64,000 nt of DNA from an uncultured virus (IMG/VR IMGVR_UViG_3300038393_001696) (IMGVR_UViG_3300038393_001696), one strand, 5' to 3'. Numbered from the stretch's first letter, positions 2,128-63,933 are shown. Numbers and translations are program-made. Notes: a model not told the origin generated them from the letters alone.

Positions 2128-2415
2128 TCACGCAGCCACTCTGGCCAAGGTCGACGCGTCGACCGGGCGGTACTTGTCGCGGCGGTCGCCCATCAGGTTG
2201 CGCAGGTCGCGGATGCTCATGCCCGTCACTTCGTGCATGCGGATCAGCAGCGAGGCGCCGACCGGAAGACGGTAGTGACGTACCTTGCTGATCACCGGCG
2301 GTGCGACTTCGAGCTTGCGCGCCAGCGCGGCGTCGTTCTTCAGCTGCAGCTTTCCAATCAGTTCGTCGAGCAGGTGGTTCGGGTTGTAACCATTGGTTGC
2401 AGTAGCTGTCGTCAT
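2128..2415 (-). CDS. Small HTH DNA-binding protein, homolog of 56651-56896
   Basis: NPNHLLD...LKNDAALARKLEVAPPVISKVRH; RBS GGAG upstream. Confidence 0.75.
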   Translation of the reverse strand: MTTATATNGYNPNHLLDELIGKLQLKNDAALARKLEVAPPVISKVRHYRLPVGASLLIRMHEVTGMSIRDLRNLMGDRRDKYRPVDASTLARVAA

Positions 2416-2440
2416 GTCAGTCTCCGAAATTGATGAATGG

Positions 2441-2830
2441 TTAAATTGCGAATCTGCGGACCGCGCGGGCGCGAAGCCTGGCCGACTTGCTGCTGGAGAG
2501 CTGGCCGCCGTAGCTGAAGTCCTGAACCCAGGCATAGCCGGCGAGGGCAGCGTGCTGCTCGCCTGACCAGTACCAGTCCGACTTGAACTCGCGCTGCAGG
2601 TTGGCGAACAGCAGCGCCTGTTCGCGGCGCGTCGGCAGCCCGCCGCCAGCCTTTGCAGCGAATTTCTTCGCCTCTTCCCACGTCACCGAGCCCGCCTCTC
2701 CCGGCAACAGAATCAGATGGTGGTCGGGCTGGCCCTCCACGCCGAGAAGCAGACCGGCATAGATTTCGCCCTGTTTCAGGTTTTCTTTCATCCACTCCGC
2801 CTTTGCGGTAGCTGCGCTGCTCATTGACAT
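2441..2830 (-). CDS. DGR target protein 2 (small C-type-lectin-fold, DUF1566-like)
   Basis: TWEEA...LPTRREQ...WYWS...RARAVRR C-lectin motifs; 3' end is a VR matching the TR. Confidence 0.9.
   Translation of the reverse strand: MSMSSAATAKAEWMKENLKQGEIYAGLLLGVEGQPDHHLILLPGEAGSVTWEEAKKFAAKAGGGLPTRREQALLFANLQREFKSDWYWSGEQHAALAGYAWVQDFSYGGQLSSSKSARLRARAVRRFAI
2454..2558 (-). repeat. DGR variable repeat VR2 (remote, opposite strand)
   Basis: 105-nt ungapped match to TR 9289-9393 with 16 mismatches, all at TR adenines. Confidence 0.95.
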
Positions 2831-2934
2831 ATCTTCGATCTCCTTCTTGGTCTTGATTAAGGTTGTGGACTTCCCTGGTGGTACTGTGTAATTAATGGGG
2901 AGCGCTCTTGGTGCGCACCGCGCAAAACAAACGG

Positions 2935-3540
2935 TCAGCCGACCGAGCGCAGTTTTGCCACGGCCGACCTGCCGGCGCGAGCGATGATGCTGCGGATGTC
3001 GCGCGCCGCGCGGCGGCTTGCCTCTTCGGCCTCCTCGACCTCGCGAAGCGCGGTCTGGAGTACCTCAACTGGTGCGTCCGCGCGCACGTCGGCCAGCGCA
3101 ACGACTGCCTCGCTGCTCTCCTTGGCGACAGACTTCAGGTCATCCCTGGGATCGATCGCCGCGTCGTCGGGCAGCTCGTCAGCGATACGGGCCGCGACAC
3201 CGAGTGGACGGAGAATTTGGTTCAGCACGTGAAGGCGACGGTTCTCCGGCAGCGCTGCGAGCATCGTCGGCAGCATGTTGGAGCCGAGCAGGTTGTTATC
3301 CTTGTTGACGTCATCGAGCCAGCGGTTAATGCGCTCGCAGTGCGCCTTAGCCTGGGTGAAAGCATCTTTGCTGCCCGAGTCAAATTCGACTCCCGTCAAG
3401 CGATCAGCGCCAATCGAAACGTGCGCATCGACGATGTGCAGCGCCAGGGCTTCGCGGCTCCAACCCTGCTCACGCCGGAAGGCCTCGAACTCGTCGCGAA
3501 GGATTCCGATGACCGTCTTGCTGTGTGCTTCGTTCCACAT
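2935..3540 (-). CDS. CII-like regulatory protein, homolog of 57001-57597
   Basis: Directly downstream of cro; SREALA...RWLDD...KESSEAVVAL motifs shared with prophage 2. Confidence 0.6.
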   Translation of the reverse strand: MWNEAHSKTVIGILRDEFEAFRREQGWSREALALHIVDAHVSIGADRLTGVEFDSGSKDAFTQAKAHCERINRWLDDVNKDNNLLGSNMLPTMLAALPENRRLHVLNQILRPLGVAARIADELPDDAAIDPRDDLKSVAKESSEAVVALADVRADAPVEVLQTALREVEEAEEASRRAARDIRSIIARAGRSAVAKLRSVG

Positions 3541-3669
3541 GACTTTTTCCTTTTTGAAATCTAATCTGGCAACACTCATCAATTACTGCTGGAGATCTGC
3601 GTGCCGACTGCCCTCACCATCCCTGCTTGCTTGCGCCGCACGCTACTCCTGTTGACACAGCACAAAGCC

Positions 3670-3948
3670 CTATTGCGCGATGCTGGATACGCTTTGCGGT
3701 CTGCGCCGGCCTCGATTCGGCGACTCTTTGGTGGCCAGCTCTGGCCAAATCGTTTGCCAAACTTCGGGAAACATCTCGCGCCGGGTCACCATGCCGCCGG
3801 TCTTGAGCTCGATCGAGGCACCGAATCGAATAGGAATCGGTCGTTCTCCGGTTGACCACTTGTAGACGTCGGGCGGATGGGCGCCAATGGCCTTCGCAAG
3901 CTTTGTCAGCCGGCCGCGCTCTTCGGAGAGGTATTGGGAAAGGTTCAT
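3670..3948 (-). CDS. cro: Cro-like (YdaS family) regulator
   Basis: HTH LAKAIGAHPPDVYKW, IELKTGGMVTRREMFP..IWPEL; divergent from the repressor. Confidence 0.8.
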   Translation of the reverse strand: MNLSQYLSEERGRLTKLAKAIGAHPPDVYKWSTGERPIPIRFGASIELKTGGMVTRREMFPEVWQTIWPELATKESPNRGRRRPQSVSSIAQ

Positions 3949-3956
3949 GCGCTCAG

Positions 3957-4032
3957 TTTAGCCTAAGGCTAAAGTCTTGCGCAAGAAAAAGTTTAGCCTT
4001 CTGCTGATATCGCTTTTTAGCTAATTGCTAAA
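3957..4032. promoter_or_regulatory. Prophage 1 OR-like operators (three 17-bp imperfect palindromes)
   Basis: TTTAGCCTAAGGCTAAA 3957, TTTAGCCTTCTGCTGAT 3992, TTTAGCTAATTGCTAAA 4016. Confidence 0.8.
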
Positions 4033-4042
4033 TAATATTGGG

Positions 4043-4474
4043 ATGAAAACAATTGACCAGATACGACGCGACAACCTGCAGGCCCTCGTTGATGAGTACG
4101 GGTCGGCCGCCGCAGTTGTGAGTGCGATCGGGTGTAGCGCTTCGCAGTTCAGCCAGTGGCTAAATGCATCACAAAACAGCGGCACGGGGAAGCCGCGAGG
4201 AATCGCCACGGCATCATGCCGTCGGATCGAGAAGGCGACAAACAAGCCGGTCGGCTGGATGGATAAGGAGCATCCAGCAGGCCAAGCCGGGGCTCAGCTG
4301 GCGGTGATTACTCCGCCTGAGCGCGAAACCAGAATGATCCTGGCATACGATGACGAAATAGCCCTTCTTGACCTTTACCGCCGATCAGACGAACGCGGGA
4401 AGCGGGAAATATTCAACTCAGGCCGCATCGAGGCTGATCGGACTAGTGCTGAAGTTGCTTCGCACAAGCGATAG
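4043..4474 (+). CDS. Phage repressor (N-terminal HTH, no S24 autocleavage domain)
   Basis: IRRDNLQAL...IGCSASQFSQW...CRRIEKATNKPVGWMD; divergent from cro across the operators. Confidence 0.8.
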   Translation: MKTIDQIRRDNLQALVDEYGSAAAVVSAIGCSASQFSQWLNASQNSGTGKPRGIATASCRRIEKATNKPVGWMDKEHPAGQAGAQLAVITPPERETRMILAYDDEIALLDLYRRSDERGKREIFNSGRIEADRTSAEVASHKR

Positions 4475-4609
4475 ACGCACCGGCTGCTTGACCTCGGGGT
4501 AATCAACTGACGTCAGAATTGCGCGAGCGAGCGTCGTACTTCTTCCGCGCTCGTCTGATGCCCTGTAAGCCGCCAGCAGTTGCTCCTCTTCCGCGTTCTC
4601 CGTCATCAT
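4418..4609 (-). CDS. Small protein resembling the repressor C-terminal segment
   Basis: EEQLLAAYRASDERGR versus repressor EIALLDLYRRSDERGK. Confidence 0.55.
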   Translation of the reverse strand: MMTENAEEEQLLAAYRASDERGRSTTLARAILTSVDYPEVKQPVRLSLVRSNFSTSPISLDAA

Positions 4610-4807
4610 TACCATATCTTAACGAGCCTTGCGCAAAACACAATGTACATGGTAGGAATCCTCCTACAAAGAATCCCCGCAACACCGCAATTTACCACCT
4701 CGCAGCCGGCATAAAAATCACAAATTTCCACACATTCATCTATATGATGCCACCAACATGGTGGCACTTCCACCCCTGGAAGTCTCGGCAAGTGAAAAAA
4801 TAGGGCG

Positions 4808-5035
4808 ATGCCGAATCCGCCCAGAAGAACAAAAAGTCAAGACGAATACGCCAAACTCACCGTGCGACTTCCGCGTGACCTTTACGAACACCTATCGCGG
4901 GAAGCATCGCGCCATGGGCAGTCGCTCAACGCCCATATAGTCACCAGGCTGCGTGAGAACGAACTCGGCCAGATCCGCTCCGAACTTGATGACGTCAATT
5001 CCACTCTTCGTAAAATCCTTGATGCGGTAACTTGA
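4808..5035 (+). CDS. Arc-family ribbon-helix-helix protein
   Basis: LTVRLPRDLYEHLSREASRHGQSLNAHIVTRL. Confidence 0.8.
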   Translation: MPNPPRRTKSQDEYAKLTVRLPRDLYEHLSREASRHGQSLNAHIVTRLRENELGQIRSELDDVNSTLRKILDAVT

Positions 5036-5434
5036 TCATTTAGTTACATTCGGAATAAATTTCCGTCGAAAATTACATTATAGAAATCTGCTCCGAGGCG
5101 ATATTTACAGACTGTTTCACCTCGATGCAACAGCTGTCGCTCAGCAGCCACAAGCGACGCACTCTCTGGCTAAGACCGCCCGGGCGATCAGCTGTCTTGC
5201 GCGCTAATCCCCTCCCTACTACCTCGCCACGAAACGACCTTCGCCGCAACGGTACTCCCCTCAGTGCTTTCCACATTACAACTAGATCGCGTCAATATAT
5301 GTCGTGCATCTGTATTGAACACTGACGTAAGCTGAACTCCAGACTTGGGAGCAGCCACATCTCACCCAGCCACTGCTACTCCTCACCTAATTGCCACCGC
5401 GCTTAGGACGTGCCCTCTACTTCAATTTTCACAC

Positions 5435-5488
5435 TTTAGCCTGAAGCTAAATTTATTGTTGACTCGAAGTTTAGCCTTAGGCTAATAT
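5435..5488 (+). promoter_or_regulatory. Prophage 1 OL-like operators overlapping a PL-like promoter
   Basis: TTTAGCCTGAAGCTAAA 5435, TTTAGCCTTAGGCTAAT 5470; TTGACT 5459 and TAATAT 5483. Confidence 0.75.
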
Positions 5489-5526
5489 GAGTAAACAACG
5501 CGGCAATCACACCAGTGGAGGCAGCC

Positions 5527-5685
5527 ATGCAATCGAATCACCCGTCGAAGCACGCCGTGAGGGAATACATGGCCAAGCGCCATCGGGAAAGGACGCCGCC
5601 GCCATCGCCGGAACAAATCAGGCGCGAGCTGTGCTGGCACCTGGTAGAGGCGGAGCGTCAGGTAAATAGGATGACGAGGAAATGA
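5527..5685 (+). CDS. Small conserved early protein, homolog of 60161-60325
   Basis: HPSK..VREYM..RTPPPSPEQIRREL.WHL in both prophages; GGAGG RBS; below the ORF-track size cutoff. Confidence 0.7.
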   Translation: MQSNHPSKHAVREYMAKRHRERTPPPSPEQIRRELCWHLVEAERQVNRMTRK

Positions 5686-6110
5686 GCGCGGAACGAATCG
5701 ACCCGAACAGCCGGGAATACCTGCAGCAGCTGTTAAAAGCAGAGGCCGAACTGGCAGAGGCCAAAGGCTACTACAAGGTGCGGCTGCCGGGCATCGAGTC
5801 GATGACGAGGCTTACCCCGCTCTACCCGACCAGGCGGGATGCGACCGGCGGGTTCAGCCCTCATTCGCTACCGCGATGGCGACGCGAGTGGCACGACGGC
5901 GGCAAGCTGATTGGCGAATGCCGGTTGAGCTTGGCGTATGGAGAAACTGCGATCACCGCGTTCACAGCAACCGGCAGGCATTGCGGAATCGCCAAGTGGG
6001 CCGAGCATCCGACCAAAGACAACGCGATTCTCTCCGCGATCGTCGAGGCGGCGACGTCGTATTTCAAGGCGCTGCGCGAAGCGGAGAACAACGAGAGGAG
6101 CAAGGCATGA
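5682..6110 (+). CDS. Phage hypothetical protein
   Basis: ORF with ATGA coupling in the early operon. Confidence 0.55.
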   Translation: MSAERIDPNSREYLQQLLKAEAELAEAKGYYKVRLPGIESMTRLTPLYPTRRDATGGFSPHSLPRWRREWHDGGKLIGECRLSLAYGETAITAFTATGRHCGIAKWAEHPTKDNAILSAIVEAATSYFKALREAENNERSKA

Positions 6111-6627
6111 GATACCTAATCACGGCGAAGTACGAGAACGGCGCGACGCAGCGCTATGTAGGCATCGGCGACCGAGATGCGCTGATGGACGCCATCTACG
6201 ACGACGGTGCCCTGATTCTCAGCTTCATGCCGCTGCCGTGATCCGCACGATCGCTCAAGCGCTGGTCATTACCTTCGGGCTCCTGCTTCTCTGCGCCGAG
6301 GCTGATCGCATGGATTCTCAACCCCAACCTGTCGAGGTGTCGCAATGAGGCTCTATCTCTGTTTCGGGTGCATGACGATTCTCGCACTCCTGGTCGTGAT
6401 ATCCCAGGGCGATACGGTCACCGACTACGCACGATGCCAGGGGCAGACCGCGTATGCGCAAGCACGTCCTGTGACTTGGCCGGATCTCGAGCGCCTGCCC
6501 GTGCGTTGGCCGCAATGAGCTTTCTGAGCCAAGTTGTGCGGAACCGGAGATGCGGGCTCTGGTGGCGCCATGCAGTCAAGGCCGCAGTGCTGAATAAGCA
6601 GATTTCAAAACTCAGGGAGAGACAACA

Positions 6628-6969
6628 ATGAAAGCAGTTGAAGCAGGCATTTTGCGGGTCGCGGTGCTTGGAGCTGGCGCAGTCCTTCCGAATGCGTATT
6701 CGACCGGGATCGTGACGACCGTCGATCGGGAAGCGGAGCGTACCCGGCTGCAGGGCTGCGCCGACCGCCTTCTGAAAGATGCTCGCGAGTCCGGAATTCG
6801 CGGGTGCGCGTCGATTGCCGGCGGCGTGATCGAGATGATCGAGATCGCGGGGCCGGACGACAACGAGATCATCGGGCTGGTCGCCCAGTGCTACGACATG
6901 ACGCCGGCCGAGGCAATCGAGCGCCTTGCATCGATCGATTTCGCACGAGCTCGCGCCGAACTGGCGTAA
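6628..6969 (+). CDS. Phage hypothetical protein
   Basis: GGGAG RBS; position in operon. Confidence 0.55.
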   Translation: MKAVEAGILRVAVLGAGAVLPNAYSTGIVTTVDREAERTRLQGCADRLLKDARESGIRGCASIAGGVIEMIEIAGPDDNEIIGLVAQCYDMTPAEAIERLASIDFARARAELA

Positions 6970-7007
6970 GCGACTCGGCAAGAATAACCACAACACCAAG
7001 GACAACG

Positions 7008-7904
7008 ATGTTTTTCCAGAACCTCCAGCTTTATCGCGTGCCCGCGCCTTGGGCATTCACTCCCGAACAACTCGATGAATCGCTCAAGCAACAGCGCTTT
7101 GCTCCAGCCGGCAGTAACGAACTGCTGCGCATGGGCTGGGATTCGCCGCGGAAGAACGGCCAGCTCGTGCACGTCGTCAACAAGCAGATGCTGCTGGTGC
7201 TCGGCACCGAGAAGAAGCTGCTGCCGAGCTCGGTGATCAACCAGGTCGCGAAGGCGAAGGCGGCCGAACTGGAAGAGCAGCAGGGCTTCCCGCCGGGCAA
7301 GAAGGCGATGAAGGAACTGAAGGAGCGCGTGGCCGACGAGCTGCTGCCGCGCGCATTCTCGATCCGCGGCAACGTTTGGGTCTGGATCGATCCGGTCAAC
7401 GGCTGGCTGGTGGTCGATGCGGCCAGCCCGGCCAAGGCGGACGACGTGATCAAGCTGCTGCTCAAGGCGGTGGACCGCATGCCGCTGGAATCGCTGCGCG
7501 TGCAGCGATCGCCGGTGGCGGTGATGACCGGCTGGCTGGAATCGGACGAGGCGCCGTACGGCTTCACGATCGACCAGGACGCGAAGCTGCGCTCCGCCGG
7601 CGAAAGCAAGGCCGAGATTGGCTACAAGCGCCATACCCTCGAGGCGGATGACATGCGCCGCCACATCGCAGCCGGCAAACAGTGCACTCGTCTGGCGCTG
7701 ACCTGGAACAGCCGCATCTCTTTCGTGCTGACCGACAGCCTCGCGCTCAAGGTTGTCAAGCCGCTCGACGTCATCCGCGAGAGCGCGGCAACCCCGTACA
7801 GCGATGACGAACGCTTCGACAACGACTTCGTGCTGATGACCGGCGAATACGCCAGGATGCTCGCAGATCTGGTCGATGCGATGGGCGGGGAGGCGAAGGC
7901 GTGA
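7008..7904 (+). CDS. rdgC: Recombination-associated protein RdgC
   Basis: MFFQNLQLYR...EKKLLPSSVI...LLPRAFS...GKQCTRLALTW...FDNDFVLM. Confidence 0.92.
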   Translation: MFFQNLQLYRVPAPWAFTPEQLDESLKQQRFAPAGSNELLRMGWDSPRKNGQLVHVVNKQMLLVLGTEKKLLPSSVINQVAKAKAAELEEQQGFPPGKKAMKELKERVADELLPRAFSIRGNVWVWIDPVNGWLVVDAASPAKADDVIKLLLKAVDRMPLESLRVQRSPVAVMTGWLESDEAPYGFTIDQDAKLRSAGESKAEIGYKRHTLEADDMRRHIAAGKQCTRLALTWNSRISFVLTDSLALKVVKPLDVIRESAATPYSDDERFDNDFVLMTGEYARMLADLVDAMGGEAKA

Positions 7905-8125
7905 CGAAGCAGGAAACCGAGGCGGAGCGCCTGGAGCGGTTGGACCGTGAAGCCAGCCGCGTCTACCGGGCGCAGCGCTTCTCGGGCGGGAAGACATCCA
8001 AGCGGTACCGACTCGATATGGAAGAAGTATCCCGTCCGACCGCTGCAGCACCGCCAAAAGGCGCAACTGGTAACGACATCAAGCAGTAATTTTAAGCAGA
8101 TTAACACTCACAACAAGGAGAAAAC

Positions 8126-8740
8126 GTGAACACCCAGGTCCAGAACACCCTGCCGGAGATCGGCTCTTCACTGGAAGGCGGCTTTTACGCCGGCCGGATC
8201 CAGATCGATGGCATTCTCTATGCGCTGATCGTCGCGCCGAAGGTGGAAGGCGAACGGGATGGCGTCGCGTGGCTCGAATCCGAGCAGCGCGTCGCTGATG
8301 CCAACAGCTACAACAACGGCATGCTGAACACGCGCGCCATGCTCGAAGCCGGAAGCGAGGTGGCTCAATGGGCACACGGCCTGGCTATCGGCGGCTACAC
8401 CGACTGGTATATCCCGAGCCAGGACGAACTCGAGATCATCTATCGCAATCTGAAGCCAACCGCAGAGACTAACTCGCTGTACGGCCGAAGTGGCGTGAAT
8501 ATCTCGGCGCCCCCGCCTACCTTCGCCTACAACCGCGAACTGCCGGCCAAGACGACGGCTGAAGGTTTTGCTGCGGGCGGCGAGCATGCCTTTGCTGACG
8601 AATGGTACTGGTCGTCCACGCAGAACGCTGCCTACGACGACTTTGCCTGGGGTCAGCTCTTCGTCATCGGCAACCAGGGCTACATCCCCAAGTCGGCCAG
8701 GCGTCGCGCCCGCGCGGTCCGCAGATTAACCATTCAGTAA
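8126..8740 (+). CDS. DGR target protein 1 (DUF1566-like C-type-lectin fold)
   Basis: GGFYAGRI...GGYTDWYIPSQDELE...WYWSSTQ...RARAVRR; carries VR1; directly upstream of avd. Confidence 0.92.
   Translation: MNTQVQNTLPEIGSSLEGGFYAGRIQIDGILYALIVAPKVEGERDGVAWLESEQRVADANSYNNGMLNTRAMLEAGSEVAQWAHGLAIGGYTDWYIPSQDELEIIYRNLKPTAETNSLYGRSGVNISAPPPTFAYNRELPAKTTAEGFAAGGEHAFADEWYWSSTQNAAYDDFAWGQLFVIGNQGYIPKSARRRARAVRRLTIQ
8619..8724 (+). repeat. DGR variable repeat VR1
   Basis: 106-nt ungapped match to TR 9288-9393: 14 mismatches at TR adenines, 2 at non-A positions. Confidence 0.95.
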
Positions 8741-8757
8741 TTTAGTCCTTTCTCAGC

Positions 8758-9111
8758 ATGGCACTCCACACCAACCTGCCGATCTACAAGGTCGCCTACG
8801 ATCTCCTGGTGCTCGTCGCTAACCTGTCGAAGAACATGCCGCGCGACTTCAAGGCATCAATCGGCGGCAAGCTTCGCGACGAGACCGTCGAGATCGTGAC
8901 CTTGATCTTTCGCGCCAACGTGGCGCGTGAGAAGGCTCGCCATCTAGATGCGCTGATCGAGCGCGTGCAGGTGGCTGAACTGCTGCTGCGGGTGGCGCGC
9001 GACATGCGCCTCATCGCGGTGAAGCAGTATGCCAGCGCGATCGAGCTGACTACCAGCGTCAGCAAGCAGGCCAATGGATGGCGCCGTTCCGCAATGCCGC
9101 CCGCTTCATGA
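8758..9111 (+). CDS. avd: DGR accessory variability determinant (four-helix-bundle Avd)
   Basis: LPIYKVAYDL...MPRDFKASIGGKL...IFRAN...SKQANGW; lies between target and TR. Confidence 0.9.
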   Translation: MALHTNLPIYKVAYDLLVLVANLSKNMPRDFKASIGGKLRDETVEIVTLIFRANVAREKARHLDALIERVQVAELLLRVARDMRLIAVKQYASAIELTTSVSKQANGWRRSAMPPAS

Positions 9112-10508
9112 TGGTCAAGGCCACCATGACTGTGCGAACTTTTAATCTGGTCGTGCCGCTGGCTCACGAGGCCACCGCCATGCGCACCGCAGATACCACT
9201 CGACAGTGTTCGGGCAGGTCCGGCGCAGTTTCCCCGCTGATCGGCCGCTGCGGCCTTCGGTGGGGCGATGTAGATAGCACGAATAACCGCAGCACGCTGC
9301 CAACGACGACTATGCCTGGAATCAGAACTTCAACAACGGCAACCAGAACTACAACAACAAGTCGGCCAGGCTTCGCGCCCGCGCGGTCCGCAGGTTATCC
9401 CGGCCGCCACCATGCTGATTTTTCTTTCGAGGAGCTGGTCCTAGCCTATCTGGACTGCCGCCAGACGAAGCGCACATCTGCCAGCGCCATAGCGTTTGAA
9501 CAGGACCAGGAGCGCAATCTGGCGCGGCTGCACGACGAGCTGCTTGATGGCACCTACCATCCGGGCCGGTCGATCTGCTTCGTCATCACCCGCCCAAAAG
9601 CGCGCGAAGTCTGGGCGGCGGACTTCCGTGACCGTATCGTGCACCACCTGCTCTACAACCGCATCGCGCCGCGTTTTCACGCCTCGTTCATCGCTGATAC
9701 CTGCGCATGCATCCCGGGCCGCGGCACGTTGTATGCGGCACGGCGCCTCGAGTCGAAGATTCGCGCAGCCTCCGGAAACTGGAGCAAGCCTCTGTGGTAC
9801 CTGAAGTGCGATCTAGCCAACTTCTTCGTCACGATCGACAAGCGTGTTTTATGGAAGCTTATCGCGGTCCGTGTGACCGAGCCCTGGTGGCTGTGGCTCG
9901 CTGGAGTGGTCCTGTTCCACGACCCGCGGCAAGACTTTGAAATGCGCGGCGATCGACGCCTGCTCGAGCGTGTGCCGGCGCACAAGCGGCTGGCCAGCCA
10001 GCCGAGCCATCTTGGCCTTCCAATCGGGAACTTGTCGTCGCAGTTCTTCGCCAACATCTACCTCGACGTGCTCGACCAGTACGCGAAGCACAGGATCGGG
10101 GCGCGCCACTACGTGCGCTACGTCGACGACTTCGTGCTGCTGCACGGGTCGCCGCGGTGGCTGAACGAAGCGCTGGCCAAGATTAACAAATTCTTGCCGG
10201 CGAAGCTGGGCGCGCGCCTCAACCCCACCAAGACGGTCCTGCAGCCGGTCGACCGCGGCGTCGACTTCGTCGGACAGCTGATCAAGCCATGGCATATGAG
10301 AACCAGGCGCCGCACGGTGCGTCAGGCCATCACGCGCGTGCGCACGATGGATGCGGACAACGTGCACTCAGCGGCTAACAGCTACTTCGGGCTGCTGCGC
10401 CAGGCATCCCACAGCCACGTCGACCGGGCGGCGCTGGCAAGAGCGGTGCTCCGGCGCGCGCATGCCGTCGACGGCGGCCTGACCAAGACCTATCGGAGGT
10501 CCAAATGA
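9108..10508 (+). CDS. DGR reverse transcriptase (start uncertain; recognisable RT sequence begins about 9420)
   Basis: REVWAADFRDRIVHH, LKCDLANFF, GLPIGNLSSQFFAN (DGR-type SQ motif), YVRYVDDF, GVDFVG. Confidence 0.93.
   Translation: MMVKATMTVRTFNLVVPLAHEATAMRTADTTRQCSGRSGAVSPLIGRCGLRWGDVDSTNNRSTLPTTTMPGIRTSTTATRTTTTSRPGFAPARSAGYPGRHHADFSFEELVLAYLDCRQTKRTSASAIAFEQDQERNLARLHDELLDGTYHPGRSICFVITRPKAREVWAADFRDRIVHHLLYNRIAPRFHASFIADTCACIPGRGTLYAARRLESKIRAASGNWSKPLWYLKCDLANFFVTIDKRVLWKLIAVRVTEPWWLWLAGVVLFHDPRQDFEMRGDRRLLERVPAHKRLASQPSHLGLPIGNLSSQFFANIYLDVLDQYAKHRIGARHYVRYVDDFVLLHGSPRWLNEALAKINKFLPAKLGARLNPTKTVLQPVDRGVDFVGQLIKPWHMRTRRRTVRQAITRVRTMDADNVHSAANSYFGLLRQASHSHVDRAALARAVLRRAHAVDGGLTKTYRRSK
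9288..9393 (+). ncRNA. DGR template repeat (TR)
   Basis: Nine AAC/AAT triplets in the VR reading register; matches VR1 and VR2 essentially except at A. Confidence 0.95.
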
Positions 10509-10771
10509 AAGAAGTGCCATCCAGGCCGGCTGTGCTCGACGCCCTGCTAAACCCCGAAGCTTACCTGCACCAGGCGCGGCTTCTCTGGCTTCTCTCCGCC
10601 GGCCGTCCAGTTCTTCACGATGGAAGCAACAAATATATCCATACGGTCACCGCGCAGCAGGCTGGCGGAGCGATTGAAATGGCCGTGTACTTTTCGGGTG
10701 ATCCAACACCCGTCGATAGCTCGCTGATTCAACTGAAGACAATAACGAATGAAAGGGATGAGGATGAATAA
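10505..10771 (+). CDS. Hypothetical protein
   Basis: GGAGG RBS; ATGA overlap with the RT stop. Confidence 0.5.
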   Translation: MKEVPSRPAVLDALLNPEAYLHQARLLWLLSAGRPVLHDGSNKYIHTVTAQQAGGAIEMAVYFSGDPTPVDSSLIQLKTITNERDEDE

Positions 10772-18353: not shown

Positions 18354-18845
18354 ATGGCAGCAGATTTCTACCTGCAGATCGAAGGCATCAAGGGCGAGTC
18401 GTCGGACTCGAAGCACGCCGGCTGGATCGAATGCATGTCGGTCAACTGGGATATCCGGCAACCAAAATCGGCCACGGCTTCGACCGGCGGTGGTCACACC
18501 GCTGAGCGCGCCGAGCTCAGCGACATCAGCATAGCCAAGCTGGTTGACCTGTCCTCGCCCATCCTGGCGCAGCATTGCGCGATGGGGAAGACGATCCCGA
18601 AGGCGAAGCTGGAAATGCAACGCGCTGACGGGCAGGGGCAGCCGATAAAGTATTTCGAGGTCGAGCTCGAGAACGTACTAATCTCGCACATCGCGCCGAG
18701 CTTCGACGGCGGTGGGCAGCCAATGGAGAATTTGGGCTTGAAGTTCTCGAAGGTACGCTGGCGCTACACGCAGCAAAAGGTGGGCGGCGGCGCCAGCGGC
18801 AACACGGCCGGTGGCTGGGATCTGGCCACGAACAGGTTTGCATGA
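18354..18845 (+). CDS. hcp: T6SS Hcp tube protein
   Basis: DFYLQIEGIKGESSDSKH.GWIE...KLVDLSSP...GWDLATN. Confidence 0.95.
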   Translation: MAADFYLQIEGIKGESSDSKHAGWIECMSVNWDIRQPKSATASTGGGHTAERAELSDISIAKLVDLSSPILAQHCAMGKTIPKAKLEMQRADGQGQPIKYFEVELENVLISHIAPSFDGGGQPMENLGLKFSKVRWRYTQQKVGGGASGNTAGGWDLATNRFA

Positions 18846-19195
18846 TGCGCGCGCTCATTCTTTTGGCGCTCGCGCTGCCGGCTTACGCCGCGCCGGTCGG
18901 GACCCATCCATTCCCGTGGATGACCGGCGAGCAGCTACTGCGCAAGCTGGACCGACCGGCGAGCCAGATCGACGCTGCGGCGACATCAGCCTACCTGCAG
19001 GGCGTGATGGACGCCACCGCTGACCGTGAATGGTGCTACAGCGCGACCAAACCCGGTACCAACCAGGTGCAGCCGGTGCTGACGGACAAGCTGCGCGCGC
19101 TGCCACCGGCGCAGGTGCGCCAGAGCGCGGCGGTGCTGGCGGTGCAGGCGTGGCGAGAGAAGTGGCCTTGCACTGCGGGGTGCTGCCATGCATAG
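18842..19195 (+). CDS. Rap1a/Tai-like T6SS immunity protein
   Basis: Signal peptide, TGEQL, YLQGVMD, WC, C-terminal WPC; next to tae4. Confidence 0.8.
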   Translation: MMRALILLALALPAYAAPVGTHPFPWMTGEQLLRKLDRPASQIDAAATSAYLQGVMDATADREWCYSATKPGTNQVQPVLTDKLRALPPAQVRQSAAVLAVQAWREKWPCTAGCCHA

Positions 19196-19664
19196 ACCAC
19201 TCTATGCTGTCCTGCGAAGCAAGTATCCCGACAGGCGCTCCGTCAGCGCCGAGGAAATCTACCGGTGGATCGGCTACCCGCCCGAGTACGCGAGCGACGC
19301 GCGCTGGGCGAATACCTGCGCGGTCCGGATGAGCCTCGCACTAGTGCGCTGCGGGGTGCCGGTGCCGGGACGGCTGCGCGTGCTGGCCGGCGAGTGCAAG
19401 GGCAAGCTGCTCGAGCCGGGGCAGGCGAACCTTTCGCACATGCTGGTGCGCCTGTGGGGCGCGCCGGAAAAGTACCAAGGTGGCCCGGCGGCGATTAAGG
19501 GCATCGGCAGCCGGCGCGGCGTGATCAGCTTCTACCGCCTCTGGAACCCGAGGGACCCGCAAGGGCATATCGACATGGTGGCACCGTGGGGTATCAACGA
19601 CCTGGCATGTGAGGAGGACTGCTACTGGCTGTCGTCGGAGGTGTGGTTCTGGCCGCTGAAGTAG
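19188..19664 (+). CDS. tae4: Tae4-family peptidoglycan amidase effector
   Basis: NTCAVRMS (catalytic Cys), RGVISF, GHID (His), VWFWPLK. Confidence 0.88.
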   Translation: MHRPLYAVLRSKYPDRRSVSAEEIYRWIGYPPEYASDARWANTCAVRMSLALVRCGVPVPGRLRVLAGECKGKLLEPGQANLSHMLVRLWGAPEKYQGGPAAIKGIGSRRGVISFYRLWNPRDPQGHIDMVAPWGINDLACEEDCYWLSSEVWFWPLK

Positions 19665-46221: not shown

Positions 46222-47307
46222 CTAATCATTTGCCCCGCCTGCAATGGCGGGCGCGCTTCGATTTGGCTCGCCACTTTTGCGCCAGTTAAACCCGATTTCA
46301 CCGCCGATCCGGTTCTGCGCGCGCGCCGCCGTGTCGAGATTCTTCTCCAGGTAGCCCATCGTCGTGGTGAAGCTTTTATGCCGCATCACCTTCTGGATGG
46401 TCTGGATCGGCACGCCCGCCTCCGACAGCAGCGTGGCGAACGTGCCCCGCAAACGGTGCGGCGTGATGCCCTTGACCGCGCAGGCGGCATTAGCCCGGCG
46501 CAGCGCATGGCGCGCGAACCCGGGCGCGAACGGCTGCCCGTCCGGCCGGCATGCGATCAGGCCCTCGGCCTGGCGCAGCGGCTTCAGGAAGTCGCGCAGC
46601 CAGTCCGGCAGCGGCACCGGCTCGGCCTCCCTGCCCTTGGTGATGCCGGGCGTGTAGGTGCCGCGCTGCCAGTCGACCCATTCCCAGCGCGCCGACGCCG
46701 ACTCGCCTTCGCGCAGGCCCAGGCCGAACATCAGCCGCACCGCGACGGCGACGCCGGGCGAACGCACGCACGCCGCGTCGACCGCATCGAACCACGCCCT
46801 GGCGACATCCAGCGGCAAGACCGCGCGCGGCCGCTTCTGCACCTTGATCATCGCGACCTTCCACGGCGCCGCCAGGATGATCCCGCGCTTGACTGCCCAC
46901 AAGGTCAGCAGCTTCAGGATGCGCAGCCAGTGGTTCGCACTGGCCGGCTTGCGCTCCAGCAGGTGCGCGTTGCGCGCCAACTCGACGGCGCCGGTGGTGA
47001 TCTCGGTGATGCGCTTGTCGCCCAGACCGTAAAGGTGCAGGCGCCCGAAGCGCTCGACGCTGGCGGCATGGTGCACGCTGACGACCGGCCGGTTGGCCGC
47101 CAGCCACGCGTCGATCAACTCGCGCAAGGTCGGCACCGGCTTGCCCCCGTTGACGCGCACCACTTCGTCCTCGTAGGCCTTGTTGGCAATTTCCTCCGCG
47201 CGCCACCGCCGTGTCTCGCGCGTGCTGCACTGCGTGCGCTTGCGGGCAATCTGAAACCGGTAGTGCCACACCGATCCGACCCTGAACAGACTGGCGCCCA
47301 TCGTCAC
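46222..47307 (-). CDS. Tyrosine recombinase internal to prophage 2
   Basis: GLREGE, TKG, HRLR, MRH...TTMGY. Confidence 0.88.
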   Translation of the reverse strand: MTMGASLFRVGSVWHYRFQIARKRTQCSTRETRRWRAEEIANKAYEDEVVRVNGGKPVPTLRELIDAWLAANRPVVSVHHAASVERFGRLHLYGLGDKRITEITTGAVELARNAHLLERKPASANHWLRILKLLTLWAVKRGIILAAPWKVAMIKVQKRPRAVLPLDVARAWFDAVDAACVRSPGVAVAVRLMFGLGLREGESASARWEWVDWQRGTYTPGITKGREAEPVPLPDWLRDFLKPLRQAEGLIACRPDGQPFAPGFARHALRRANAACAVKGITPHRLRGTFATLLSEAGVPIQTIQKVMRHKSFTTTMGYLEKNLDTAARAQNRIGGEIGFNWRKSGEPNRSAPAIAGGAND

Positions 47308-56650: not shown

Positions 56651-56896
56651 TCATGCCGCCCCGCCGATGAAACCGCGGATGGTCGGCACCGGCAGGCCGG
56701 CGATCTCGTGGCACTTCAGGATCATTGCCGGGCCGACCGGCAGGCGGCCGTGGCGGATCTTGCTGATCACGGGCGGTGCGACCTGCAGGCCGCGCGCCAG
56801 GGCGGCGTCGTTCTTGGCGCCGAGCTTCTGCATCACGGCGTCCATCAGGCCGTTCGGGTTGCGGGCCGCCGCGGCGGCCGTCGAGGTGGTTGACAT
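56651..56896 (-). CDS. Small HTH protein
   Basis: NDAALARGLQVAPPVISKIRHGRLPVG. Confidence 0.75.
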   Translation of the reverse strand: MSTTSTAAAAARNPNGLMDAVMQKLGAKNDAALARGLQVAPPVISKIRHGRLPVGPAMILKCHEIAGLPVPTIRGFIGGAA

Positions 56897-57000
56897 GCGT
56901 CTATCTCCTTCTTGTGGTTGGATAAATCGGGTGGACATCCCTGCTGCTACCGTGGCAGCGTCGGGGAGCGGTCTGCGCCGCCCGCCCGCGCAAAAAAACC

Positions 57001-62161: not shown

Positions 62162-62938
62162 ATGTCCTTCGACACCGCCGAAGCAGCACCCGCCGCAGTG
62201 GACGCCACCGCTGCCGCACCGGCAGCCGCTGCCGTTGACCAGCACCTGTTCGTTACCGTCCCGGAAACCACGCTGCCGAACGGCACGGTGGTCCCGGCCT
62301 TCCAGGTCGGCCAGTACTACTGCTCGCAGGGCGCGGACGGCAAGCTCGCGATCAACGCGAGCAGCGAGCCGTGGGTCGAGATCAGCTACCACGCCGCGCG
62401 CCAGGCCTGCGCCGCCGCCGGCTACTCACTGCTGACCGAGCTGCAGGCGTTGGCGATTGCACACAACATCGCCCAGCAGGGCGCGAACTGGAGCGGTGGA
62501 CAGGTTGGCGTGGGCAACCTGCTGCAGGGCCTGCACCTCGACCCCGACGACGCCGACGAAGCCTACGCCGGCGACTACGTGCCAGCCGATCCGGCCGAGC
62601 GCCGCATGTTCGTGCTGTCGAACGGCCAGACCATCTGCGACGCGGCCGGCAATTTCTACGGCTGGGTCTTCGATGACGTCCAAGGCGACGAGAACGGTTT
62701 AGTGGCGCGCGCATTCGCTGCCGATTCGCCGTCGATCACCACGGCGCCATTCCCGTCGCTGGAGCGCGGCATGGGCTGGTATCCGAAGGCCGGCAGCGAT
62801 TGGTCGGGCGCTGCGCTCCTCCGCGGCGGCTACTGGTGTTCGGACGGCGATGCCGGCGTGTTCGATCTCGACTACGGCTGGCCCGGCGACGCCTACGACT
62901 ACGTGGGCTTCCGCTGCACCAAACCCATTGGTCTCTGA
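62162..62938 (+). CDS. Putative DGR target A (FGE-sulfatase-type C-lectin fold)
   Basis: FQVGQY, PWV.ISY..A..AC, DAAGN, RGG.W, VGFRC; GGAG RBS at MSFD (frame is open back to 61943). Confidence 0.8.
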   Translation: MSFDTAEAAPAAVDATAAAPAAAAVDQHLFVTVPETTLPNGTVVPAFQVGQYYCSQGADGKLAINASSEPWVEISYHAARQACAAAGYSLLTELQALAIAHNIAQQGANWSGGQVGVGNLLQGLHLDPDDADEAYAGDYVPADPAERRMFVLSNGQTICDAAGNFYGWVFDDVQGDENGLVARAFAADSPSITTAPFPSLERGMGWYPKAGSDWSGAALLRGGYWCSDGDAGVFDLDYGWPGDAYDYVGFRCTKPIGL

Positions 62939-62972
62939 TCCCTGGTCCCGGGTCGCCGCGTCAGCGGTGACC
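62801..62972 (+). repeat. Putative VR-A, conserved 3' tail and hairpin
   Basis: Ungapped match to 63762-63933; hairpin GGTCGCCGC-GTCA-GCGGTGACC. Confidence 0.85.
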
Positions 62973-63008
62973 GATCCCGAGCCACCGACAAACGCGAGAA
63001 CCGCCAAC

Positions 63009-63899
63009 ATGAAAATCGAACTCACCCAAGAGCACACCTTTACCGCCCGCGCTGGCGCCTACACGGTACACGGCCTGCGCCGCGCCGACCAATGGGAAGG
63101 CCTGACCAAACTGGTGGACCTGTCCGAGCGCTTCCTGATCGTATCTGACAACGACGGAATCGTGGTCAAGGGCACGCCCGCGCTGCTGCGCGACCTGCGC
63201 CTGACCGCCAGCACCGACTTGTTCGTCACCGTGCCGGAAACTACGCTGCCCACCGGCCAAGTCGTGCCGTCGTTCCAGGTCGGCCAGTACCACTGTGGCA
63301 GCGACGGCGACAGCATCGCCATCCGTTCCGACTTGGTGCCGCTGGTACGCGTCAACTACCGCGACGCGAAAACGCGCTGCGTGGACGCCGGCTACCAGTT
63401 GATCACCGAACGGCAATGCCTGGCGATTGCCGTCGACATCGCCGGGCAGGACATCAACTGGACCGGCGGCAAGGTCGGGCACGGCGCGATCTACCAGGGC
63501 CTGCACCTCGGCACGGTCAGCGCTCCGCAGGCCGGCACCTACGAACCGGACGACAACGAACGCCGCTGGCACCAGCTGTCGAACGGTGCGCGCATCTACG
63601 ACTTCGCCGGCAACATGTTCAGCTGGGTGTACGACGACGTGCAGGGCGACGCCGAAGGTCTGGTAAGCGCCGCGATCGAAAAGGACTCGCCGTCGCTCGC
63701 CAGCGCGCCCTACCCCAGCGAACAGAAGGGCATGGGCTACATCCCGCGCGGCCCGCTGAAGTGGTCGGGCCGTGCGCTCGTCCGCGGCGGCTGCTGGTTT
63801 TCGGACGACCGTGCCGGCGTGTTCAGTCTCGACTACGACTGGCCCGACTCCGCCAGCGTCTACGTGGGCTTCCGCTGCACCAAACCCATTGGTCTCTGA
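63009..63899 (+). CDS. Putative DGR target B (FGE-sulfatase-type C-lectin fold)
   Basis: Paralog of A with a different N-terminus; DFAGN, RGG.W, VGFRC. Confidence 0.8.
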   Translation: MKIELTQEHTFTARAGAYTVHGLRRADQWEGLTKLVDLSERFLIVSDNDGIVVKGTPALLRDLRLTASTDLFVTVPETTLPTGQVVPSFQVGQYHCGSDGDSIAIRSDLVPLVRVNYRDAKTRCVDAGYQLITERQCLAIAVDIAGQDINWTGGKVGHGAIYQGLHLGTVSAPQAGTYEPDDNERRWHQLSNGARIYDFAGNMFSWVYDDVQGDAEGLVSAAIEKDSPSLASAPYPSEQKGMGYIPRGPLKWSGRALVRGGCWFSDDRAGVFSLDYDWPDSASVYVGFRCTKPIGL

Positions 63900-63933
63900 T
63901 CACTGGTCCCGGGTCGCCGCGCCAGCGGTGACC
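63762..63933 (+). repeat. Putative VR-B, conserved 3' tail and hairpin
   Basis: 17 coding differences from VR-A, all at codon positions 1-2; hairpin GGTCGCCGC-GCCA-GCGGTGACC. Confidence 0.85.

Follow-up and report, generated by a model that had tools for sequence, protein, structure and literature searches.

An apparently active diversity-generating retroelement in a lambdoid-type prophage's early region, with one template and two target genes, one of which is remote and on the opposite strand

The diversity-generating retroelement (DGR) of Bordetella phage BPP-1, arranged as mtd-avd-TR-brt, acts by adenine-specific mutagenesis and combines avd as accessory gene, a template repeat (TR) and the gene of a reverse transcriptase (RT) with one target, a tail-fibre protein encoded in the structural module, whose C-terminal variable repeat (VR) is carried on a C-type-lectin fold and ends in a GC-rich initiation of mutagenic homing (IMH) site followed by a hairpin. 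In the survey of 372 DGRs by Wu et al. (2018, NAR 46:11, PMC5758913), 73 putative non-adjacent targets were assigned to 45 DGRs, and short DUF1566-only targets were placed in a category 'd', half of the DUF1566 category being short, domain-only proteins; the part of that survey dealing with non-adjacent targets describes neither a placement in divergent early operons nor a signature of relocation. Two-target phage DGRs were also reported by Baykov et al. (2023, PMC10743442), viral DGR targets were mostly tail proteins according to Roux et al. (2021, PMC8144416), and the genome announcement of Burkholderia phage Magia (MT701587; PMC7883833) names genes 47 and 57 as potential targets. Given the survey of Wu et al. 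and phage Magia, a single template that serves two targets, including a non-adjacent one, belongs to an established kind. The present analysis concerns a stretch of 64,000 nucleotides from an uncultured virus (IMG/VR IMGVR_UViG_3300038393_001696), referred to below as the window. Very probably, the window holds a complete DGR in a lambdoid-type prophage, in which a single TR rewrites the VR of an adjacent target (VR1) as well as that of a remote target on the opposite strand (VR2). New here are the opposite-strand position of the remote target within a cro-cII operon and the signs of its origin, namely a swap of flanks and an insertion at a start codon.

For the alignment of the repeats, the three copies of the common core were anchored and then set in register. 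The TR (9289..9393, plus strand) aligns without gaps over 105 nt to the reverse complement of VR2 (2454..2558, minus strand), and all 16 mismatches lie on TR adenines (positions 9302, 9303, 9306, 9309, 9320, 9321, 9326, 9333, 9335, 9341, 9342, 9347, 9348, 9351, 9354 and 9357). As 30 of the 105 TR positions are adenines, random placement would produce this result with P = 4.6e-11, and the 75 non-A positions match without exception. The adenines of the TR fall on the first (12) and second (18) codon positions only, and 9 of its codons are AAC or AAT. Against the same TR, VR1 (8620..8724, plus strand) also has 16 mismatches, of which 14 are at A and two are not (TR C9293>A and TR T9372>G); VR1 and VR2 differ from each other at 22 of 105 positions. 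The ungapped alignment of the TR to the 3' end of a 129-aa minus-strand gene, the restriction of all 16 mismatches to adenines, the codon changes AAC>CTC, AAT>GTT and GAC>GCC and a different set of substitutions in VR1 had all been proposed in a first-pass annotation of this DNA, and each of them was recovered when the TR was aligned anew to both VRs. The GC-rich IMH-like core of VR2 (TCGCGCCCGCGCGGTCCGCAG, 2454-2474) is the same as that of VR1. In both VRs the core is followed by an AT-rich flank, but in the TR it is followed by 'GTTATCCCGGCC', the IMH*-type flank starting 'GTTATCCCGGCCGCC...', and the same split was seen in 10 relatives. The TRs of these 10 relatives differ from the window TR at several non-A positions in the 3' part; because the non-A match of VR2 is nevertheless perfect, VR2 is tied to the TR of the window. 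Family scans of the open reading frames (ORFs) in 1-20 kb yielded no second TR, avd or RT, and the self-comparison of 1-20 kb yielded no second template. Within this range VR2 therefore shows A-to-N differences only and lies outside another DGR, which are the features by which Wu et al. (2018) recognize non-adjacent targets.

The cassette itself looks intact and complete, with target 1, avd, a structured RNA, the TR and an RT. The avd gene (8758..9111, plus strand) matches Pfam bAvd (7.6e-11, 42.9 bits with a cut-off of 40) and phrog_3206, 'Avd protein of DGR' (1.1e-30); its match to NCBIfam DivGenRetAVD (1.5e-12) is below the cut-off. The gap between avd and the TR is occupied by a full-length match to the Rfam RNA RT-15 (9095..9289, plus strand; 172.6 bits, gathering score 82), whose last base is the first base of the TR. 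RT-15 was found at the same place in all seven related DGRs tested (L022, L023, L024, L031, L045, L081 and L088), among them that of phage Magia. Weinberg et al. (2017, PMC5737381) tie only RT-10 to a DGR and speculate that other RT motifs belong to other DGRs; the orphan motif RT-15 (RF03018) can now be placed, on the evidence of these matches, as the structured RNA between avd and TR of the present DGR lineage. The RT gene (9396..10508, plus strand, start approximate) encodes the motifs YVDD and IGNLSSQ and matches Pfam RVT_1 (3.4e-15) and phrog_1423 (2.8e-117). An ORF of 9078-10508 was also considered as an RT with an N-terminal extension running through the TR; it was rejected, since the RT-15 match at 9095-9289 is full-length. 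This RNA and the TR lie inside the ORF, and the phrog_1423 match begins at its residue 115. The best solved relative of the RT is 8ub7, 'Reverse transcriptase' (E 6e-36), which we take to be the Bordetella DGR RT, compared with about 1e-8 for retron and group II RTs. A search of NCBIfam, which has no DGR-RT model, returned no DGR-specific RT name.

Natural variation of the repeats was available from 11 soil or rhizosphere runs in which the region is present, all as assembled Logan contigs; four of them (X4, X8, X10 and X11) were compared. A 154-bp contig of run X10 over 2460-2613 has 22 differences, and 20 of the 21 that are listed lie in VR2. Of these 20, 19 are on TR adenines, so that the variation is nearly confined to A sites. 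In run X11, a 588-bp contig over 2528-3114 has 8 differences, 7 of them within 2535-2564, and the contig over VR1 (7669-8782) has none; the contigs of run X10 have holes over 7843-9288, which are uninformative. The flanks of this variant VR2 allele, as found in X10, X11 and the homologous protein P0003, differ at 2 positions in about 556 nt. Its translation is within one residue of P0003 over the last 47 residues, and P0003 is identical to the 129-aa target 2 protein of the window (P0001) outside the VR except for K83R, with 14 differing VR residues. Starting from the window TR, A-only changes suffice for every VR residue of P0001, of P0003, of P0004, which is more distant, and of the VR1 of the relative P0122, against two unreachable residues in the VR1 of the window (target 1, P0002). 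The TR, VR1 and VR2 of three IMG/VR contigs are identical to those of the window, and all 11 contigs that carry target 1 have it in identical form, its nearest relative being 72% identical. As read from these contigs, VR2 shows rewriting at A sites since the split of two lineages that elsewhere differ by only a fraction of 1%, and the variant allele shows the marks of having been written from the window TR or an identical one. The A-restricted variation on which the first-pass annotation had staked its reading is thus present in a second natural allele. With less force, the same data suggest that VR1 is quiescent and has seen no recent rewriting. In a 6,618-bp contig of run X4, the reverse-complemented RT/TR side (from 9358) is fused to VR2 and target gene 2 (from 2490) via 36 nt common to TR and VR2. 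This junction is the one expected from inversion of a 6.8-kb segment with the immunity switch, and an assembler working at k=31 could equally produce it; the uninverted order is found in the window and in the three IMG/VR contigs, and we lean towards an assembly artefact.

For comparison, related loci were scanned by self-comparison for repeat pairs with at least 80% of the mismatches at A. The set comprised 74 loci (64 from genomes, 8 from metagenomes and 2 further viral ones), among which L034/L035 and L013/L014 look like duplicate pairs, and a TR was found in 33. Because the filter missed the window's own VR1 (14/18 in that alignment), degraded VRs may be missed in the relatives too. All 33 TR-bearing loci have between two and four VRs per TR (in the 28 genome loci, 20 times two, 7 times three and once four), and all of these VRs are located upstream on the TR strand at a distance of at most 4.4 kb, with none on the opposite strand. 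The unusualness claimed for the arrangement therefore holds for the placement on the opposite strand and in another operon, and it does not hold for the number of targets, since several targets per TR are the rule and non-adjacent targets are documented. Among the closest are the tandem DGRs of Oxalobacteraceae, Rhodocyclaceae and Gallionellaceae prophages (L022-L086), in which a large DUF1566 target, a small DUF1566 target, avd, RT-15, TR and RT follow each other; for the small targets of the TR-bearing loci the identity is 52-69%, and the mismatches are all or nearly all at A. In contrast to these, the window has its small target outside the cassette, inverted at a distance of 6.7 kb and with exchanged flank types. 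The DGR of phage Magia (gene 44, RT; gene 45, Avd; targets 46, 47 and the non-adjacent 57) belongs to the same lineage as that of the window and resembles it in having RT-15 directly upstream of the TR and small stand-alone lectin-fold/DUF1566 targets (57% identity over 72% of the length of P0001 for the best match). It is located in the early operon between immunity region and integrase, and the mismatches of its TR to the VRs in genes 47, 46 and 57 are at A in 8/8, 11/11 and 15/15 cases. Gene 57 heads this early operon, some 7 kb from the TR; all Magia targets are on the TR strand and in one operon, whereas the window has its non-adjacent target in the cro-cII operon, on the strand opposite to the TR and beyond the repressor/cro switch.

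The flanks of the two targets contain a trace of how the remote gene may have reached its place. Among the tandem relatives compared, the four closest (L022, L023, L026 and L045) have a large first target that ends with RRFAI and a stop codon, after which 'ATTCGCAATTTAA...GGAG...ATG' introduces the small target. The latter ends with RRL(T/I)IQ and a stop codon, and next comes 'ATTAACCATTCAGT.ATTTA...CAGCATGGCACTCC', the avd start. Of the large homologues fetched, 8 of 10 end in RRFAI. The window has these flanks the other way round: its large target adjoins avd with the flank of a small target, and its small target has the flank of a large one, namely the AT-rich 3' flank of VR2 (2416..2453, minus strand) with the stop codon, 'ATTCGCAATTTAAC...' and the ribosome binding site GGAG. 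P0122 and P0004, which are encoded on one 8,316-bp contig, show the same exchange. The flank type found at VR2 goes with A-only-mismatch VRs in the four tandem relatives. The landing site can be seen by comparison of the prophage with the DGR (prophage 1) with a second prophage region of the window (prophage 2), which has homologous cII-like, intergenic and helix-turn-helix (HTH) gene sequences. Prophage 1 has an insertion of about 437 nt that separates the resident 'ATG TCA' from the remainder of the HTH gene (2128..2415, minus strand; homologue in prophage 2 at 56651-56938), whose 5' end is thereby split, and the inserted piece runs from the ATG of the small target to the ATG after its flank. 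This junction was read from BLAST and the printed sequences, as MAFFT of both post-cII regions placed the gap poorly. The same comparison confirms that the post-cII slot of prophage 2 is without a target gene, as had been noted; the nearest genome record (G001) corresponds to prophage 2 and is without the DGR. On balance we favour, with some reserve, an origin of the small target from a tandem large-small-avd arrangement by recombination between two direct VRs, with the excised piece inserted at a start codon. A deletion between the direct VRs would lead to exactly the arrangement observed if the excised piece landed at a start codon with the help of a few homologous bases. Mosaic exchange between phages or another route is conceivable.

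How the two VRs would be rewritten is taken over from membership of the family. The RT together with Avd would copy the TR RNA into complementary DNA (cDNA), random bases being placed opposite adenines, and the cDNA would then replace any VR that ends in a matching GC-rich IMH core plus AT-rich flank. Two genes possess such a site, the adjacent 204-aa target with VR1 and the 129-aa target with VR2 directly after cII; since homing would proceed via diffusible cDNA, distance and strand would be irrelevant. That the likeness of TR and VR2 is ordinary paralogy of two lectin-fold genes with an A bias by chance can be regarded as refuted already: the common C-terminal motif of the family, and nothing else, could be put forward for it, and the probability calculated above for 16 of 16 mismatches at A, as well as the position of the TR, which is non-coding in this context and adjoins avd and RT, leave it a chance close to nil. 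Improbable, though less extremely so, is an account in which VR2 is a stranded relic that was diversified in a tandem cassette, was then moved and is no longer rewritten, its A-only pattern being historical. Such an account could explain why the VR2 allele of the window recurs in all three IMG/VR contigs and in runs X8 and X4. It is contradicted by the second allele, which differs at 19 A sites within flanks that have changed at 2 of about 556 nt, and which possesses the relocated gene's own RRFAI end, so that its rewriting postdates relocation; moreover, VR2 has no non-A mismatch to the TR, compared with two in the adjacent VR1.

A third possibility is that the VR2 alleles were acquired by recombination with the VRs of other co-resident or co-infecting DGR phages, or were written from another TR of identical sequence in the genome and not from that at 9289. 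The same soils contain this family in very great abundance (related contigs of high depth; 1636 homologues), and the one non-A difference of the variant allele could also have entered in this way. We nevertheless consider this highly improbable, since the TRs of the 10 relatives deviate at several non-A positions in the 3' part, since both VR2 alleles follow the window TR at the non-A sites (75/75, and all but one), and since P0003 has residues that occur in neither VR1 nor the TR peptide. Several observations weigh against a currently active element with two targets. The window allele of VR2 is stable at the consensus level in the three IMG/VR contigs and in runs X8 and X4; one of the 20 listed differences of the variant allele, a synonymous one, is at the TR thymine T9298; the variation is known from consensus contigs of different samples and not from within one population; the search for a second TR covers 1-20 kb of the window; the contrast of a static VR1 and a live VR2 is based on one rewriting event and two VR1 point mutations, non-A differences being known from some DGRs (Wu et al. 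2018, PMC5758913); and folding of the VR flanks as DNA gave no GC-rich hairpin better than shuffles after either VR (z 0.16 and 0.98). A GC-rich inverted repeat downstream of the IMH was present in 127 of 372 DGRs in the survey of Wu et al. (2018, PMC5758913) and is hence not universal. The DGR with its two targets is itself real, and it appears to be active.

Target gene 2 (2441..2830, minus strand) encodes P0001, a 129-aa stand-alone DUF1566/C-type-lectin-like protein, just downstream of the cII-like gene in the cro-cII-replication operon; target gene 1 (8126..8740, plus strand) encodes the 204-aa DUF1566 protein P0002 and adjoins the cassette. P0002 matches Pfam Lcl_C (PF07603) with E 4.9e-11 and 43.4 bits, above the gathering threshold of 34.9, and phrog_4245 with 2.8e-31, and P0001 matches the same families with E 2.3e-5 (25.1 bits, below that threshold) and E 5.8e-9; PF07603 is listed in the precomputed Pfam tags for P0001 and most of its homologues. 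In BLASTP the two proteins share a single stretch of 52 residues with 37% identity, in agreement with the earlier statement that outside the VR they have little in common beyond C-lectin motifs. An AlphaFold model of P0001 (pLDDT 76.7, low over 99-115) had no match in the PDB with E <= 0.001 by Foldseek. VIA-align returned 43 chains with Z of at least 5, and C-type-lectin-like domains predominate among the best 50 (highest Z 7.5; 6.9 for 8q4e, the C-terminal domain of Legionella Lcl, 5.1 for Mtd 1yu0 and 4.8 for TvpA), values that are middling by the tool's own note. Both targets thus place the VR at the C-terminus of a protein that, by the Lcl_C matches and, for P0001, by the model with its middling Z values, has the C-type-lectin fold. 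Homologues with E <= 0.001 numbered 1636 among 1720 candidates for P0001 and 1169 among 1717 for P0002. When 26 small homologues were aligned, their body proved to be conserved and their C-terminal block hypervariable. A metagenome scan with P0001 gave 8 relatives of 33-61% identity, the 1,266-bp contig of P0003 and that of P0004/P0122 not being among them. Since neither P0001 nor P0002 has an N-terminal hydrophobic segment or a Cys, both are predicted to be cytoplasmic, and they would be small binding proteins expressed early. With BPP-1 the locus shares the avd-TR-RT core, A-specific mutagenesis, the C-terminal VR on a C-type-lectin fold and the GC-rich IMH; it differs in its two small, non-structural-looking targets in early operons and in lacking a hairpin. 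Besides these proteins, a conserved 123-aa paralogue of the small target occurs in Massilia, Telluria, Janthinobacterium and related genomes (L043-L085, e.g. L058:9983-10354). Its C-terminal block is fixed (...ETRAQLVWGENFASGIQTVYGRPFRGHARAVRR...) and no TR lies within 10 kb in any of the 19 such loci examined; in L058 its neighbours are of chromosomal type (SRAP, DJ-1/PfpI, M28 peptidase). It looks like a domesticated copy that is no longer diversified.

The element is located in the early region of a lambdoid-type prophage, whose host is a soil betaproteobacterium, probably of the Oxalobacteraceae. Between the two VRs is the immunity switch, consisting of a repressor gene (4025..4474, plus strand; phrog_12107 transcriptional repressor, E 1e-24) and the divergent gene of a Cro/YdaS-like regulator (3670..3948, minus strand; Pfam YdaS_toxin 2.6e-8, P22_Cro 2.2e-3, phrog_35 7.9e-15), with the presumed operator region in the 76-bp gap between them (3949-4024). 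On the plus strand the repressor gene is followed by an Arc-like gene, the RdgC-like gene, target 1, avd, TR and RT; on the minus strand the Cro/YdaS-like gene is followed by the gene of a CII-like activator (2935..3582; phrog_163, E 5.7e-9), target 2 and the HTH gene. The first-pass annotation was accordingly right in describing one TR and two VRs on either side of a repressor/Cro-like switch, with the second target 6.7 kb away on the opposite strand and one target in each divergent early operon. The RdgC-like gene (6804..7904, plus strand; Pfam RdgC 1.9e-110) is upstream of the DGR in the same operon; its Pfam match starts from residue 69, and the true start is likely near 7008. An IMG/VR contig reaching beyond the left end of the window carries resolvase, HNH, helicase and DnaD/DnaC-like loader genes on the minus strand. 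A weak terminator-like hairpin with a T-run, identified by consensus match only, is present at 2945-2932 (minus strand), where it immediately follows the cII-like stop codon and precedes target 2; read-through or antitermination may thus be needed for target 2 to be transcribed. A tRNA search of the window found none, and hence no att site can be inferred. Megablast of 2300-10600 against GenBank phages gave no match.

Further observations were made in the remainder of the window. In prophage 2, an FGE-sulfatase-type ORF (62850-63899, plus strand; Pfam 8.5e-6, 26 bits with a cut-off of 23.3) lies downstream of an RdgC-like gene, and its 3' end with flank (63762-63933) is repeated 961 nt upstream (62801-62972) with 89% identity over 172 nt. 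These repeats look like two tandem VR-bearing targets of a second DGR with TR and RT beyond the window end. Prophage 2 also has a gene of the tyrosine integrase family (46222-47307, minus strand) between the replication genes and the HNH/terminase module and not at a prophage end. Between both prophage regions, a trio of Hcp, Rap1a-immunity and Tae4-amidase genes (type VI secretion effector/immunity) is located at 18354-19664 (plus strand).

The case adds to the known class of DGRs with an adjacent and a non-adjacent target in one prophage. It offers natural evidence of a non-adjacent, opposite-strand target that is rewritten at A sites and of an adjacent one that is unchanged in the same lineage, as well as a readable trace of target-gene movement in the exchanged VR flanks and the start codon-to-start codon insertion into a resident gene; this trace agrees with the remark of Wu et al. 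(2018, PMC5758913) that the arrangement of target genes changes quickly. The two proteins belong to a family of DGR targets that is very large, with over 1,600 small and over 1,100 large homologues, and whose members lie in early operons and are apparently cytoplasmic; their ligand is the real question. A bolder reading, which we judge rather unlikely, is that the relocated, inverted target is the main live substrate and the adjacent one is decaying, and that the two proteins act as differently timed binders; since any replication fork or transcript passing through the prophage would meet opposite strands at VR1 and VR2, the pair could then be an outcome of DGR cDNA integration that depends on orientation. 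In any case, the VR1/VR2 pair is a natural test of orientation dependence. If the reading were true, each divergent early operon would contribute one hypervariable cytoplasmic lectin-fold binder, which would give the prophage two differently timed, self-diversifying proteins that would bind host or rival-phage factors rather than being receptor-binding parts of the virion.

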